Shown here: piece after piece, positions 6,548 through 56,080 of the stretch | How positions within the stretch are numbered: position 1 is the first letter of the stretch | Layout: each line of letters starts with the position of its first letter | Source: Candidatus Gastranaerophilaceae bacterium | GTDB lineage: Bacteria > Cyanobacteriota > Vampirovibrionia > Gastranaerophilales > Gastranaerophilaceae | Direction: 5' to 3' | Assembly: GCA_035354275.1 (NCBI GenBank) | Contig: DAOQAU010000001.1 | Location: forward strand, 42,377-106,376 | DNA length: 64,000 bases | The notes under the pieces: model-generated | The model's database searches: none | What the model saw: only the letters and a program-made list of their open reading frames with translations | What the model was told of the DNA's origin: nothing | Program-made: the position numbers and the translations under genes

Positions 6548-6650
6548 TAGTTGAAAAGTCGAACAGTCGATAAGTTGAAAAGTTTATGAGAGTATAAGAT
6601 TATGAGTTTATAAGTTTTCTTCTCACTCCTCACATCTCACCTCTCACTAC
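6548..6650. repeat. Stop-rich 7/8-nt tandem tracts, including the dispersed 36-bp unit
   Basis: AGTTGAAAAGTCGAACAGTCGATAAGTTGAAAAGTT (also at 23311 and 58731), then a TATGAGnn/TATAAGnn octamer run, then CTCACTCCTCACATCTCACCTCTCACTAC. The last tract abuts the subunit c stop codon and reads GTGAnnn on its sense strand. Confidence 0.8.
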
Positions 6651-16515: not shown

Positions 16516-16642
16516 AAAAGTGAAGAGTGATGAGTGAGCAGTGAACGGAATATTTTTGAAATCTACAATTTCAAAATTATTCCGTGCCATCAATTTTATT
16601 TATCCTGCCCCTTCACTTTTCACTTCTCACCCTTCACTTTTC
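16516..16642. repeat. Inverted pair of heptamer tracts flanking the conserved GAAATCTACAATTTC hairpin
   Basis: Left arm AAAAGTGAAGAGTGATGAGTGAGCAGTGAACGG and right arm CCCCTTCACTTTTCACTTCTCACCCTTCACTTTTC are imperfect reverse complements. The central hairpin is at 16546-16584. Confidence 0.8.
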
Positions 16643-16764
16643 AAGACTACCCACTTATCTTATGGGCATGTAGTCTAAAAGGGGATTTTTTATCAAATAA
16701 AAACATTTAAACTTATCTTACAGTGGGATAAATTCCCGTACTCAAGATATTGGGAGTGATAATT

Positions 16765-19060: not shown

Positions 19061-19072
19061 TTCCCCTCATTT

Positions 19073-19145
19073 GTCATCCTGAAATTGTTTCAGGATCTCT
19101 CCAACTTACACCGCTGACGAGATGCTGAAATAAATTCAGCATGAC
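19073..19145. repeat. REP-like element of two inverted hairpin units
   Basis: GTCATCCTGAAATTGTTTCAGGATCTC and GAGATGCTGAAATAAATTCAGCATGAC. Each is a hairpin, and the second is approximately the reverse complement of the first. Confidence 0.75.
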
Positions 19146-19322
19146 GTTTAAATGTATATTTAAGTATAATAATACTTGTAAAAATAAAATTTGCTATAAA
19201 ATATAACAAATCTTAAAAACATTTACAATTTAAAAAAAATTATTGTAAAAATTTTCTAAAAAAATATCGACGTACAAGAATTTTTTTGTACGCCGATAAA
19301 ATTAATAATATCTAAATTTTTT

Positions 19323-23250: not shown

Positions 23251-23419
23251 GTGAGGGGGTAAATGTATTTAGCTGAATGGCTGAATGGGTGAACGGCTGA
23301 AAGGTTATTTTAGTTGAAAAGTCGAACAGTCGAATAGTTGAAAAGTTTTATATTAGTCGGGAAACAACAATTTGAACTTATTCACTTATTCACTTATTCA
23401 CTTTTTCACCCATTTACCC
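23251..23419. repeat. Largest composite of stop-rich 7/8-nt tandem tracts
   Basis: GTGAGGGGGTAAATG, then a CTGAATGG octamer run, then the 36-bp AGTTGAAAAGTCGAACAGTCGAATAGTTGAAAAGTT unit, then CTTATTCAC x3 TTTTTCACCCATTTACCCC running into the hydG stop codon. The ends are inverted copies of GGGGTAAATG. Confidence 0.85.
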
Positions 23420-25908: not shown

Positions 25909-27114
25909 ATGAAAAAATCAATAAAGGATTTAGGCGACATAAAAGGCAAAAGGGCACTGGTGAGAGTTGATGTTAACGTTCCTCTCGACGAAAACAAAAA
26001 CGTGACAGACGACACAAGAATTCAGGCTATTATTCCGACAATAAAGTTTTTACAGGAAAAAGGCGCAAAAATAATTCTCATGGCGCATTTGGGAAGACCA
26101 AAAGGCGAATGGAATATGGAATTTACACTTGCTCCTGTTGCAAAAAAACTTTCTAAAGTCTTAGGACAAGAGGTTTTATTCATTTCAACTCCGATAGGTC
26201 AAGGTGCCGAAAAAGATTTAACAGAGCTTAAAGACGGTCAGGTTGCCTTATTGGAAAATATTCGTTTTTATAAAGCCGAAGAAGCAAAAGACGATGACAT
26301 GACATTTGCCAAAGAACTTGCAAAACTAGGCGATTTTTACGTTAATGATGCTTTCGGTGCTGCGCACAGAAATCACACTTCAACATCAAAACTTGCAAAA
26401 GTTTTAAAACCGGCTGTTTCAGGATTTTTAATGGAAAAAGAAATAAGATGTCTGGGAAATGCCCTTAATAATCCCGTAAAACCTTTTACCGCAATAGTAG
26501 GCGGTGCTAAAGTTTCGACCAAAATCGGGGTTTTGGAAAACTTAATCGATAAAGTGGACAACCTGATAATCGGCGGGGGCATGGCTTACACGTTTGTCAA
26601 AGCAAACGGCGGCAAAATCGGAAATTCAATCTGCGAAGACGACCAGCTTGAAGTCGCAAAAGAAGTAGAGAAAAAAGCTGCCGCAAAAGGCGTTAAAATA
26701 ATTATGGCAAAAGATGTTCTTGTAACAGACGATTTTTCAGGAAACGGTACAAACAAAATCGTAGATGTTTATGAAATCCCCGACGGCTTTGAAGGAGTTG
26801 ACGCAGGCCCTGAAACTCAAAAAGCGTTTGAAGCTGTAATCAAAACCTCAAAAACAATTCTTTGGAACGGGCCTGTAGGTGCGTTTGAAAACGACAAATT
26901 TACTCAAGGCACAAAAGCTGTTGCACTTGCGGTTCAAGAAGCCACAAAAAACGGCGCGGTAAGCGTTCTTGGAGGCGGCGATACCGTTGCGGCGGTTAAA
27001 AAATACAAATTGGATGAAAATACTTTCACCCACATTTCAACAGGCGGCGGCGCAAGCCTTGAATTTATCGAAGGCAAAGTGCTTCCTGGCGTTGACGCTT
27101 TAGATGATAAATAA
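25909..27114 (+). CDS. pgk: Phosphoglycerate kinase (canonical copy)
   Basis: 401 aa. RVDVNVPL, MAHLGRPKG, NDAFGAAHR and GGGDT motifs. No N-terminal extension. Confidence 0.96.
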   Translation: MKKSIKDLGDIKGKRALVRVDVNVPLDENKNVTDDTRIQAIIPTIKFLQEKGAKIILMAHLGRPKGEWNMEFTLAPVAKKLSKVLGQEVLFISTPIGQGAEKDLTELKDGQVALLENIRFYKAEEAKDDDMTFAKELAKLGDFYVNDAFGAAHRNHTSTSKLAKVLKPAVSGFLMEKEIRCLGNALNNPVKPFTAIVGGAKVSTKIGVLENLIDKVDNLIIGGGMAYTFVKANGGKIGNSICEDDQLEVAKEVEKKAAAKGVKIIMAKDVLVTDDFSGNGTNKIVDVYEIPDGFEGVDAGPETQKAFEAVIKTSKTILWNGPVGAFENDKFTQGTKAVALAVQEATKNGAVSVLGGGDTVAAVKKYKLDENTFTHISTGGGASLEFIEGKVLPGVDALDDK

Positions 27115-28897
27115 CATGATTGAATTACTGGCACCTGCTAAAGATAAAATATGTGCTAAAGCAGCAATAGATTTCGGTGCAGATGCAATATACATAGGTG
27201 CAAGCGAATTCGGGGCAAGAAAAAACGCCCCGAATTCGCTTGCTGATATTGAAGAAATTGTTCAATATGCCCATAAATTTAATGTAAAAGTTTATGCTGC
27301 GGTAAACACAATTTTAACCGATGAAGAAATTAAGAGGGCAGAAAAACTAATTGAAGATTTATCAAAAATCGGCATTGACGCGATAATAATACAGGATATG
27401 GGCTTACTTTCAGCAATAAAAGCCAATAATATTTGCTGCCATGCCTCAACCCAATGCGATAATACAACGGCCGAAAAAGTTAAATTTCTTGAAAGTATAG
27501 GGTTTTCAAGAGTAATTTTGGCGCGGGAACTCTCGATTGAACAAATTAGAGAAATAAAAAAGCAAACCAATCTTGAACTGGAAGCCTTTATCCATGGTGC
27601 ATTATGTGTTTCATACAGCGGAAAATGTTACCTAAGTTATGCCATAGGCGGACGCTCGGCAAACAAGGGCGAGTGTGCCCAGCCTTGCAGAAAAAAATAT
27701 TCACTCATTGACGAAAAAGGAAATTACCTCGCAAAAGACAGATATTTGCTTAATTTAAAAGATTTTAACGCCTCAAATTACATAAAAGAATTAGCTGAAG
27801 CAGGCGTTACATCATTTAAAATTGAAGGAAGATTAAAAGACGAAAATTACGTAAAAAATGTCGTCGCATATTACAGAAAACTAATCGACGATTTAGATTA
27901 CCAAAAAACATCGTCTGGTAAAATATTATTTGATTTTGAACCCGATTTGAATAAAAGTTTTAACAGAGGCTTTACGGATTATTTTCTCGAAGGCAAAAGA
28001 AAAAAATGCTTTGACTTTGACAGCCCAAAATCAAAAGGTGAATACATCGGAGAGGTTACGAAAATCAAAAAAGATAACTTTGAAATCACGTCACCCCTCA
28101 CCCTTCACCCTTCACATCTTTTTTCCCAAGACGGCTTATGTTTTATGTACAACGGCGAAATTCAGGGCTGTCTTGTAAACAAGGTTGAAAATAACAAAAT
28201 ATTTCCCAACAAAATGAATGGGGTTAAAATCGGGACAAAAATTTATCGAAATTTGGATTCTGAATTTGAAAAAAAACTAAAAAATTCAAAAACACAAAGA
28301 AAAATAGGGGTTAATTTAACTTTTGAATCAGATAAAATCACCGCAGTTGATGAGGACGGAAATATTACCAAAATTAATTATGCTTATGAAGAACTTGCTA
28401 AAAACAGCATAAAAGCAAAAGAAACAATAATTAAACAGCTTAAAAAATCGGGAGATAGTGATTTTGAAGTTGAAGATGTAACTATAAACATTAACAAGAT
28501 GCCCTTTTTGCCTGTTTCAAAACTAAACGAACTTCGCCGCGAATTGCTTGAAAAATTGATGAAAAAACGCCTACAAAACTATTCCCCTATACATCATCCT
28601 GAACCAATTTCAGAATCTCATCAACCCTTAAATCAAACAATCAATTATCAAGGCAATATTTTAAACAAAAAAGCAAATATTTTTTACGAAAAACACGGAT
28701 GCAAAATTGTTGAATCCGCACTTGAAAGTGGTAAAATTCCTGTTTGCGGTAAAATAGTTATGACCACAAAACATTGTCTGAAATCGGCTTTTAATATGTG
28801 CAAATCAAGTGAAAAGATGTTTTTGGTTGATGAAAAGGGCAAAAAATATTCGCTAAAATTTAATTGCGATAAATGTGAGATGGAAGTTATTTTTTAA
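27104..28897 (+). CDS. Peptidase U32 family protein
   Basis: ELLAPA...AIDFGADAIYIG..FGAR N-terminus and the E.F.HGALC.SYSG.C motif are typical of U32 proteins. Confidence 0.85.
   Translation: MINNMIELLAPAKDKICAKAAIDFGADAIYIGASEFGARKNAPNSLADIEEIVQYAHKFNVKVYAAVNTILTDEEIKRAEKLIEDLSKIGIDAIIIQDMGLLSAIKANNICCHASTQCDNTTAEKVKFLESIGFSRVILARELSIEQIREIKKQTNLELEAFIHGALCVSYSGKCYLSYAIGGRSANKGECAQPCRKKYSLIDEKGNYLAKDRYLLNLKDFNASNYIKELAEAGVTSFKIEGRLKDENYVKNVVAYYRKLIDDLDYQKTSSGKILFDFEPDLNKSFNRGFTDYFLEGKRKKCFDFDSPKSKGEYIGEVTKIKKDNFEITSPLTLHPSHLFSQDGLCFMYNGEIQGCLVNKVENNKIFPNKMNGVKIGTKIYRNLDSEFEKKLKNSKTQRKIGVNLTFESDKITAVDEDGNITKINYAYEELAKNSIKAKETIIKQLKKSGDSDFEVEDVTININKMPFLPVSKLNELRRELLEKLMKKRLQNYSPIHHPEPISESHQPLNQTINYQGNILNKKANIFYEKHGCKIVESALESGKIPVCGKIVMTTKHCLKSAFNMCKSSEKMFLVDEKGKKYSLKFNCDKCEMEVIF
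28087..28118 (+). repeat. Heptamer tract (TCACCCY x4) embedded in-frame in the U32 gene
   Basis: CACGTCACCCCTCACCCTTCACCCTTCACATC encodes TSPLTLHPSH. Confidence 0.8.
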
Positions 28898-28910
28898 AAA
28901 AGGTTAATCA

Positions 28911-29603
28911 ATGTCATATAGGGGAAAAAAATTACTAAAAATAATGCAAAATGCTAATAATTACAATAATTTTGTAATTAATTTAATTTTAAAATCAATC
29001 GTTGATAAAAACTTTAAAACCCTTGATTTTGGAGCAGGATATGGTTTTTTTGCTAATCTTTTAAGAAAAAGCGGGGTTAGTAATATCAAATGTGTCGAAA
29101 TAGACGAAGAATTAAGCGAACATTGCAAAAATCTTGATTTTTTTGTGTTTAAGAATCTGCATGACATAGAAAATAACTCTTATGATTTTATTTATACCCT
29201 TAATGTTCTTGAGCATATCAGAGATGACAAAGCGGTTTTACTTGCACTAAAAGCAAAATTGAAAAAAGAAGGGAAAATTTTTATTTATGTTCCTGCTTTT
29301 AAATTATTATATTCATCCTTTGACAAAAAAATTCGCCACTGCAGAAGGTACAAAAAAGAAGATTTGATTCCGTTTTTAGAAAACAACGGATTTGAAATTT
29401 TAAATGCAAAATATGTTGACAGTTTTGGGTTTTTCTTAGCTCTAATATACAAATTTATAAACAAAAACGACGGTGAAATTAATATGTTAAGCGTTAAAAT
29501 ATTTGATAAAATTTTATTCCCTGTCGGAAGAATTTTTGACAAAATTATCTTTGAAAAATTTTTAGGGAAAAACCTTATTGTAGAAGCAAAACTTATTCAA
29601 TAA
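28911..29603 (+). CDS. Class I SAM-dependent methyltransferase
   Basis: LDFGAGYGFFA motif I, and a DFIYTLNVLEHI motif. Confidence 0.72.
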   Translation: MSYRGKKLLKIMQNANNYNNFVINLILKSIVDKNFKTLDFGAGYGFFANLLRKSGVSNIKCVEIDEELSEHCKNLDFFVFKNLHDIENNSYDFIYTLNVLEHIRDDKAVLLALKAKLKKEGKIFIYVPAFKLLYSSFDKKIRHCRRYKKEDLIPFLENNGFEILNAKYVDSFGFFLALIYKFINKNDGEINMLSVKIFDKILFPVGRIFDKIIFEKFLGKNLIVEAKLIQ

Positions 29604-30597
29604 TTTTTATAATAAGTTCTTTGGCGGTTTTTGAGGCTTGCTCAAAAACCGCTTTATTTGTCCAAAAATCATCGCGTTCAATATATTTTTTTACAATTTT
29701 TCTTGCGTAAGAGCCGACGGAAATTCCGTTGAAATCAATTCCGAAAATTTTTGCAAGCTCTGCGGTCTTAGAATTTGTTCCGCCTGAAATTAAAAGATAA
29801 ACAGGCAGTTTTTCGTTAGCTATAATTTCTGCCATGGCAACTGCAGGAAGTGTTGTTTTAAAATCATCTTCGCCTCCGGACATCGGGTTTCCGTCTGCCT
29901 GAATTATTGTTGTATAAAGTTTTCTGTTTTTTATTAAATTTTTAATCCTGTTTAAAACTGCTTCATTTGATAGTTTTGACCTGTCAATACAAATACTCAG
30001 CATTCCGTCAAAGTTTTTGTTTAAATAATTCCATCTTTCCTGAACATCTTTTTCATCTGTGCCGGAAGCATGCAATTCAATACAGGTGAAGGGTGAAGGG
30101 TGAAGGGTGAAGAGAGGAAAAAATATGTCTTCTATCGGCTTATTTTTTTGATATATTTCAATAGCACTATGTTTACAGGTTTTTAAACATCTTGCACAGC
30201 CGATACATTTTTCTTCGATAACCATAAAATCAGGGTTGATGGCTTTTTGCAGGCAGGAATCAATGCAATTGACACATTTTTTGCAAAATTTTTGATTGAT
30301 TTTTGCTTTATTAAAATGCGGCTCGCCTTTTATTCCGACACTTATGCAAAAATGGTAATCAGATAAGTTTTTTTTGTCCGTAACCCTTAGGATGCCTTTT
30401 TGTGCAGCCTCAATAACTTCTTTATGCGGAGATAGGTCAAAAAATCTGCAGCCGGATGCAGCATAAATTGCAACAAGTTTTTCGACTTCGTCTAAATCCT
30501 CGTTTCCCGCCCCGCAAATTAACTTGAAACATTTTCTGCTTTCTAAAAGTTTTTGCAATCCGCATTGTCGGGATTGCAATCCCGACCTACCTCTCAC
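29593..30597 (-). CDS. 4Fe-4S dicluster domain protein, LdpA/DUF561-like
   Basis: FKLICGAGNED N-terminal block and two ferredoxin-type motifs, CKKCVNCIDSC and CIGCARCLKTC. The start is uncertain: the track ORF begins with GTG inside a repeat tract. Confidence 0.55.
   Translation of the reverse strand: MRGRSGLQSRQCGLQKLLESRKCFKLICGAGNEDLDEVEKLVAIYAASGCRFFDLSPHKEVIEAAQKGILRVTDKKNLSDYHFCISVGIKGEPHFNKAKINQKFCKKCVNCIDSCLQKAINPDFMVIEEKCIGCARCLKTCKHSAIEIYQKNKPIEDIFFPLFTLHPSPFTCIELHASGTDEKDVQERWNYLNKNFDGMLSICIDRSKLSNEAVLNRIKNLIKNRKLYTTIIQADGNPMSGGEDDFKTTLPAVAMAEIIANEKLPVYLLISGGTNSKTAELAKIFGIDFNGISVGSYARKIVKKYIERDDFWTNKAVFEQASKTAKELIIKIIE
30083..30117 (-). repeat. Heptamer tract embedded in-frame in the Fe-S protein gene
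   Basis: The plus strand reads CAGGTGAAGGGTGAAGGGTGAAGGGTGAAGAGAGG. The coding strand encodes PLFTLHPSPFT. Confidence 0.8.
30567..30586. other. Perfect 20-bp palindrome
   Basis: GTCGGGATTGCAATCCCGAC, between the rfbA stop codon and the Fe-S protein gene. Confidence 0.85.
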
Positions 30598-56040: not shown

Positions 56041-56080
56041 ACTTACTCACCTATTCACCTATTTACTTATTCACTTATTT
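56041..56080 (-). repeat. Stop-rich octamer tract overlapping the stop codon of the 56075 gene
   Basis: The minus strand reads AAATAAGTGAATAAGTAAATAGGTGAATAGGTGAGTAAGT. Confidence 0.75.

Follow-up and report, generated by a model that had tools for sequence, protein, structure and literature searches.

The window analysed here, a 64,000-nt stretch of a metagenome-assembled genome (MAG; 1.70 Mb, 35% GC; G000 below) from an uncultured, gut-type member of the Gastranaerophilaceae, contains two convergent genes, each of which carries in frame a tandem array of 7-nt units of the TCACCCT type (Table 1). One gene encodes a U32 peptidase-family protein, two homologues of which bear the JGI name '23S rRNA 5-hydroxycytidine C2501 synthase' (RlhA); the other encodes an LdpA-like Fe-S protein, whose homologues are named Candidatus Gastranaerophilales or Gastranaerophilaceae; and a methyltransferase gene lies between them. 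These three identities, assigned in an earlier note on this DNA, were confirmed by Pfam. The U32 gene (present in 40 of 41 related genomes) and the LdpA-like gene (in 41 of 41) are conserved single-copy genes across the order.

Table 1. Arrays and genes at the locus and elsewhere in the window (positions are those of the window; TRF, Tandem Repeats Finder)
Feature	Position	Strand	Description	Basis
Heptamer array (TCACCCY)x3.6	28091-28115	+	in-frame SPLTLHPSH, residues 330-338 of U32/RlhA-like protein	TRF, 94% matches
Heptamer array (TTCACCC)x4	30085-30112	-	in-frame LFTLHPSPFT, residues 162-171 of LdpA-like protein	TRF, 100% matches
U32 peptidase-family gene	27104-28897	+	Peptidase_U32 (77-300) and DUF3656 (380-490); array between the two domains	Pfam
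Class I S-adenosylmethionine (SAM) methyltransferase gene	28911-29603	+	between the convergent U32 and LdpA-like genes	Pfam
LdpA-like Fe-S protein gene	29593-30597	-	LdpA_Fe-S-bd (110-154) and LdpA_C (170-313); array between the two domains	Pfam
Intergenic 7/8-nt array	23272-23409	.		TRF
Further intergenic 7/8-nt array	6549-6647			TRF
Further intergenic 7/8-nt array	16519-16643			TRF
Further intergenic 7/8-nt array	42767-42830			TRF
Further intergenic 7/8-nt array	56047-56079			TRF
Further intergenic 7/8-nt array	58731-58806			TRF

The sequence, TRF and the translations agree with the description of both tracts in the earlier note, as in-frame arrays in convergent genes. The U32 tract reads TCACCCC TCACCCT TCACCCT TCAC on the plus strand of its open reading frame (ORF), in the translation context ...ITSPLTLHPSHLF... 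/ ...EITSPLTLHPSHLFSQDG...; the LdpA tract is (TTCACCC)x4 on the minus strand, in the context ...FPLFTLHPSPFTCI... / ...FFPLFTLHPSPFTCIELH.... Both consist of head-to-tail units in at least three copies, and the 18-mer TCACCCTTCACCCTTCAC has five matches at no more than two mismatches, versus 0.00 expected in shuffled sequence. The inverted repeat between the tracts, previously put at 17 bp or more, is present, with a perfect part of 18 bp; a longer alignment (24/25) is offset by one unit. The codon phases show that frame is kept only in the 18-bp register and in registers 21 nt away from it, so the in-frame chimeras predicted to follow recombination hold for the 18-bp register, but a crossover in the 24/25 register would yield out-of-frame chimeras.

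All frames of (TCACCCT)n encode the cyclic heptapeptide SPFTLHP, because 7 and 3 share no factor and three units (21 nt) run through all codon phases. The complement, (AGGGTGA)n, meets TGA in all frames, and therefore arrays of at least three TCACCCT units survive in genes in one orientation only, encoding SPFTLHP. Since the U32 and LdpA-like genes are convergent, two sense-oriented copies necessarily form an inverted repeat. The shared TLHPS and the inverted geometry are thus an arithmetic consequence of the unit and of gene orientation, and are no evidence of a device. Approximately 13 loci with TCACCCT units occur in the 1.7-Mb genome, from which we estimate a chance of approximately 0.18 that some pair falls within 2 kb. 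The significance that the earlier note attached to the shared register, the shared peptide and the inverted arrangement is not borne out, these being forced by 7x3=21, by the TGA of the complement and by convergence.

A genome-wide family of 7- and 8-nt arrays

Exact arrays of at least 20 nt in G000 number 63 with period 7 and 14 with period 8, versus 8, 0 and 0 with periods 6, 9 and 10; the excess holds against shuffled sequence as well. TRF finds 147 heptamer and 118 octamer arrays genome-wide, mostly within the approximately 10% of the DNA that is non-coding. Most units of the family have a YCAC or TTAC core. Merging leaves 250 arrays, of which 199 have exactly one stop-free strand: 149 are intergenic (118 of these with one stop-free strand), about 30 are internal to ORFs, the sense strand being the stop-free one, and about 40 overlap the 3' ends of ORFs with the stop-bearing strand in sense, where the array provides the stop codon. 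ORFs of the last kind (window example, 23272-23409) are the mirror image of those with in-frame arrays. The in-frame arrays are spread over about 20 housekeeping proteins, hosts including KdtA, RqcH/NFACT, a GT4 glycosyltransferase, MutL, ArgRS, DUF366, LigA, a CCG Fe-S protein, PolA, a PurL-like protein, a DUF512 radical-SAM protein, Era, HydF, RsgA, alanine racemase (Alr), GrpE, a Mur ligase and PGM. By our tally, 13 of 20 in-ORF arrays lie outside or between Pfam domain envelopes, as do both tracts at the present locus. This census agrees with the suggestion of the earlier note that the tracts belong to a largely intergenic repeat family, whose members sit in ORFs without breaking them.

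In the AlphaFold2 model of the U32 protein (mean predicted local distance difference test score (pLDDT), 86.4), scores drop under 50 solely at residues 332-336 (LTLHP), in the loop that joins strands 326-329 and 344-349. In the model of the LdpA-like protein (mean pLDDT, 92.3), the lowest blocks are residues 151-170, where the tract runs from the last part of helix 155-163 through a loop into the first part of strand 170-176. Sequence searches for homologues of solved structure returned none for either protein. According to these models, both tracts occupy tolerant sites, predicted to be a disordered beta-hairpin loop in the U32 protein and a helix-to-strand connection in the LdpA-like protein.

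The family is restricted in its distribution. When the pattern TCACNNN x4 was counted in 61 genomes of the family and order, with the reversed pattern as control, there were 61 matches in G000, 17 in its congener G001, and 222, 91, 22, 32, 80 and 7 in six other genera; the remaining 53 genomes had 0-3, not above the reversed-pattern control (three genomes with 1-3). Counts are appreciable (7 to 222) in 8 of the 61 genomes. On a tree of the single gene LdpA, six of the array-rich genomes form one clade (support 88/77), and the two others fall among array-free genomes, so that at least three changes are needed. One of the array-rich genomes, G042, has 91 TCAC-heptamer matches versus none in G016 and G050, its closest relatives on the LdpA tree, which suggests either a rapid lineage-specific bloom or horizontal acquisition of its driver. 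Loss of mismatch repair was rejected as the cause of the bloom: the MutS domain I family occurs in 60 of 61 genomes, every array-rich one among them, and G000 also has MutL. The PF05635 family ('23S rRNA intervening-sequence protein') was rejected, for this lineage, as an array-associated factor: array-rich G000, G001, G042 and G045 lack it, and array-free G004, G046, G047 and G031 have it. The sequence record of the sister species (L069, on G001 contig CAZXID010000004.1) is titled 'uncultured Muribaculaceae bacterium', which is likely a mislabel, its gene content and the names of its homologues pointing to Gastranaerophilaceae.

Alignment with orthologues from the family and order (29 U32 and 30 LdpA sequences) places both tracts at positions of variable length, where most relatives are shorter and have non-repeat linkers, such as ...ELDA---KVYPQDG and ...PLVK---KGLSAIELH. 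Among relatives in the wider protein database, many at 58-78% identity have array-coded peptides at both sites (for example, TIHHSPLT, TSHVSPLT and LFPLHSSPFT, and the octamer-coded TFQPFNLS); in those more distantly related, a non-repeat linker of comparable length takes their place. The check proposed earlier, that orthologues be aligned, finds both segments to be lineage-specific, without counterpart outside one clade of Gastranaerophilaceae.

The explanation that we favour, with a probability of roughly 0.85, is that both tracts are unexceptional members of a 7/8-nt tandem-array family specific to this lineage, located in tolerant loops, and that their mirror-image arrangement and common peptide are forced. 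The family has bloomed in one clade of Gastranaerophilaceae, which are non-photosynthetic relatives of cyanobacteria. Arrays may arise or land anywhere, their fate being decided by orientation and length: an array with its stop-free strand in sense, a net length divisible by 3, and a position in a tolerant loop or interdomain linker would be translated into a filler peptide, and an array with its stop-bearing strand in sense would end the ORF. Both tracts are of the translated kind, their peptides presumably functionally neutral filler, and the arrays may have been renewed over time by slippage or non-reciprocal exchange. Non-triplet microsatellites absorbed by essential proteins as loop filler have in these genes a clean natural example.

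A selected protein-level motif, TLHPS or SPFTLHP, serving binding, modification or targeting in both proteins, would also give one pentapeptide in two proteins encoded 2 kb apart, and peptides resembling S-x-x-T-x-H-x do occur at these sites in many relatives. However, S-x-x-T-x-H-x is the obligatory product of any TCAC-core heptamer array, the same peptide types are found in about 20 unrelated proteins, and in both models the peptide falls in the part that is disordered or has the lowest confidence; moreover, what persists between species is the periodicity of the DNA and not the peptide, which is NLLTSYLSPLAS or NCSPFQPFSLS in congeners. Such a motif is therefore very unlikely.

The tracts within the species

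Independent assemblies (NCBI, JGI, ENA and Logan) yielded six U32 and three LdpA sequences, which are collinear and identical in their tract peptides, and differ at other residues (I132V, E158K and S542N). A 194-nt contig from a biofilm metagenome, approximately 95% identical, has a tract of the same length, TCACCCC TTAACCT TCAACCT TCAC, and seven of its nine differences are within 28099-28124 with length unchanged; therefore the tract evolves fast by substitution, as unconstrained filler would, and not by gain or loss of units. Two activated-sludge metagenome runs contain this genome. In metagenome run X1, a 3218-nt contig spans 27600-30600 with zero differences and in the reference orientation, and in run X2 two contigs cover the region in the same orientation. 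The contigs of X1-X4 contain no strand-changing joints and no indels at the tracts. Loose contig ends at 30084-30115 do not match the flanks of inversion junctions and derive from other heptamer loci, and mapping of contigs over 29900-30300 with X3, X5, X6 and X9 gave nothing further. The check for unit-number polymorphism called for previously thus found none in the six U32 sequences, the three LdpA sequences or the contigs.

These data bear on two kinds of switch. If the tracts were the arms of an invertible 2-kb segment, an idea to which the earlier note gave low probability, a flip of 28116-30084 would swap the 3' halves of the genes and create in-frame chimeras, for which the perfect 18-bp inverted repeat does provide arms that share a codon register. 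The orientation evidence, consisting of assembled contigs, which drop rare variants, gives this proposal no support: contigs of two independent metagenomes are in the reference orientation only, with loose ends that are not junction-like, and the six U32 and three LdpA sequences are collinear. Inversion would be expected to make junctions of the form ...ATCACGTCACCCC(TCACCCT)nTCACCTGTATTGAATTGC..., ...GAAATCACGTCACCCC(TCACCCT)nTCACCTGTATTGAATTGC... and ...CCGTCTTGGGAAAAAAGATGTGAAGGGTGAAGGG...AGAGAGGAAAAAATATG.... When metagenomes were scanned for the predicted junction there was no match, and none to the positive control, the reference junction, either. No recombinase gene is present among the immediate neighbours scanned (a uridine kinase-like gene, PGK, and RmlA-like and RmlB-like genes), the other ORFs within 20-38 kb having been listed without application of the domain scan. 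Homology of 18-25 bp lies at or under the minimum for efficient RecA-dependent exchange; chimeras would cost two functions, as both genes are conserved in single copy across the order; and the out-of-frame register of the longest alignment, together with a geometry that is forced anyway, also argues against inversion, which is accordingly very improbable. The idea of an inversion switch reduces to arithmetic, and follow-up effort can be spared.

In neuO of E. coli K1, a heptanucleotide array is in frame only when the number of units is a multiple of 3, and variation in copy number switches expression. The tracts might similarly be phase-variation switches, in which adding or removing a single 7-nt unit would shift the frame and turn the gene off or on: the unit length is not a multiple of 3, and the arrays are perfect or nearly so, which favours slippage. 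Against this, the unit number is constant in all of the sequences and contigs above, the approximately 95% identical strain differs by substitutions only in a tract of equal length, the hosts are essential housekeeping genes and not surface or contingency genes, and the arrays are in mid-protein loops, not near the 5' end. Phase variation is scarcely more probable than inversion.

Unit turnover between species

At the LdpA site, the (TTCACCC)4 of G000 has as counterparts a perfect octamer array, (CCTTTCAG)3, in G001, decayed TCACYTY heptamers in a third congener, (CTCTTYA)x4.7 in G043, (CTTCTCA)4 in G023, and mixed 7/8-mers in G052. At the U32 site, G001 and the third congener have in common a decayed array of the TCTCRCC type, of the same length and alignable base by base, and the TCACCCY array of G000 is 3 nt longer. 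These two sites, each with three congeneric species, are the best-covered cases in which position is kept and the unit (at the LdpA site, also the period) is replaced. The LdpA linkers of L035 (G023) and L072 (G052) contain, besides the heptamer array, a further in-frame insertion of approximately 20 amino acids (...LRARLELLPLPQGARV... and ...LVSRVEKSPPPQGGRG...) that holds a GC-rich palindrome (CCCCAAGGGG-like) and is probably another inserted mini-element.

Comparison was extended to 21 interior in-ORF array sites of G000 in the 1.46 Mb (76%) of G001 that was fetched. By our reading, the unit is unchanged at 3 sites, another unit or period is present at approximately 10, an in-frame hairpin mini-element at 3, and non-repeat sequence at 5-6. 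The unit repertoires are species-specific, TCACCCT having 5 loci in G000 but none in the fetched G001 sequence, and CCTTTCAG none in G000 but 2 in that G001 sequence. In the MutL gene (L175, G000:C4:7535-9379), arrays occupy the interdomain linker (residues 424-433 and flanks), and G001 MutL has an unrelated non-repeat sequence of equal length at the same place. An element of approximately 90 bp that resembles a miniature inverted-repeat transposable element (MITE), with two hairpins (GTCATGCTGAATTTATTTCAGCATC ... GATCCTGAAACAAGTTCAGGATGAC), is located at approximately 19070-19165 of the window (G000:C1:61449-61540); its hairpin motifs each match 32-48 times in G000 and 42-82 times in the G001 sequence fetched. 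In three ORFs of G001 (peptides ...RSRNKFGMT... and ...HAELVSAS...), at places occupied in G000 by 7/8-nt arrays, parts of the element lie in frame.

Several points weigh against the favoured explanation. The counts of 30 in-frame and 40 ORF-terminal arrays come from a crude self-made ORF map and are approximate. Sister species hold perfect arrays of other units, or of 8-nt period, at the same sites, and neutral decay of a single old insertion does not explain such replacement of units, for which a renewal process is needed. Slippage by one unit within essential genes would frameshift them, and so does not readily account for the homogeneity of the arrays there.

A tentative alternative, which we consider possible but doubtful, is that dispersed 7/8-nt arrays of this clade evolve in concert by a non-reciprocal templated process, which overwrote two decayed arrays 2 kb apart with one lineage-specific unit, TCACCCT, in the lineage of G000. 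Candidate processes would be ectopic conversion or template switching between arrays, with the shared TCAC core as microhomology; either could rewrite old arrays in place, even in essential genes, with the frame kept. The overwritten older arrays would still be visible in the two congeners, as the TCTCRCC type at the U32 site and as the TCACYTY type or (CCTTTCAG)3 at the LdpA site. If such templated exchange is true, the two tracts are linked by conversion, not inversion. The arrays bear on why heptamer arrays abound in some bacteria and how their homogeneity is kept, and offer a comparative system in which to separate slippage from ectopic conversion.

Known repeat systems and the intervening gene

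The tracts are an additional case of a known class, heptamer simple-sequence arrays, and their mechanism is ordinary; the present case contributes a new host lineage, a large number of internal sites within essential proteins, and sites that are retained as their units turn over. The short tandemly repeated repetitive (STRR) heptamers of heterocyst-forming cyanobacteria reportedly occur even inside the RNase P RNA gene. They too are heptamer arrays of a cyanobacterial lineage, and can sit in a variable part of a working gene while leaving it active; the present host, in contrast, is non-photosynthetic, the targets are protein-coding, and the units are unrelated. Small dispersed repeats (SDRs) are said to be nested in heptamer arrays in Nostoc, and Rickettsia palindromic elements form in-frame insertions in genes. 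These are likewise tiny selfish repeats tolerated in frame in protein loops, and the hairpin mini-elements found in frame in G001 at three sites where G000 has arrays may be compared with them; the two tracts differ in being pure tandem arrays without a hairpin element.

Direct repeats of the heptamer TAACTGA are found in marine Beggiatoaceae, Cyanobacteria and some Bacteroidetes (MacGregor 2015, PMC4679880). In the forward orientation they have stops in all frames and end ORFs, and within ORFs they occur only in reverse, encoding LSVISYQ, mostly at protein termini or in hypothetical proteins (PMC4679880). The Gastranaerophilaceae arrays resemble them in being tandem 7-nt repeats, mostly intergenic and phylogenetically patchy, with an orientation rule and a fixed heptapeptide. 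They differ in their units (TCACCCT, ACTATTT and others), in being located within loops or linkers in the interior of some 20 conserved housekeeping proteins, and in having sites common to species at which the units change. In Xanthomonas and Nostoc, quadruplex-forming heptamer arrays (GGGNATC or GGGGAYT, approximately 4 units) are more frequent than expected in non-coding DNA and scarcer than expected in coding DNA (Rehm 2015, PMC4692102). Those G-rich arrays are similarly genome-wide and mainly non-coding, whereas most units here (ACTATTT, ACCATTT) have no G-runs. G-quadruplex formation was rejected as a general explanation, each tract having only three GGG runs and the commonest units none. 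The heptanucleotide repeats of neuO in E. coli K1 are described as phase-variable (PMC13001214); like the tracts, they form a 7-nt tandem array inside a coding region, but the tracts show no copy-number variation within the species and their hosts are essential genes.

The methyltransferase gene between the two hosts is lineage-specific by comparison of this position in two congeneric species, in both of which it is missing: the LdpA and U32 genes are 14 bp apart in G001 and overlap by 7 nt in the third congener. A search of the 76% of G001 that was fetched returned no orthologue. With 26% GC versus 33-36% in the adjoining genes, the methyltransferase gene is probably a recent insertion, and it plays no part in the repeat phenomenon.

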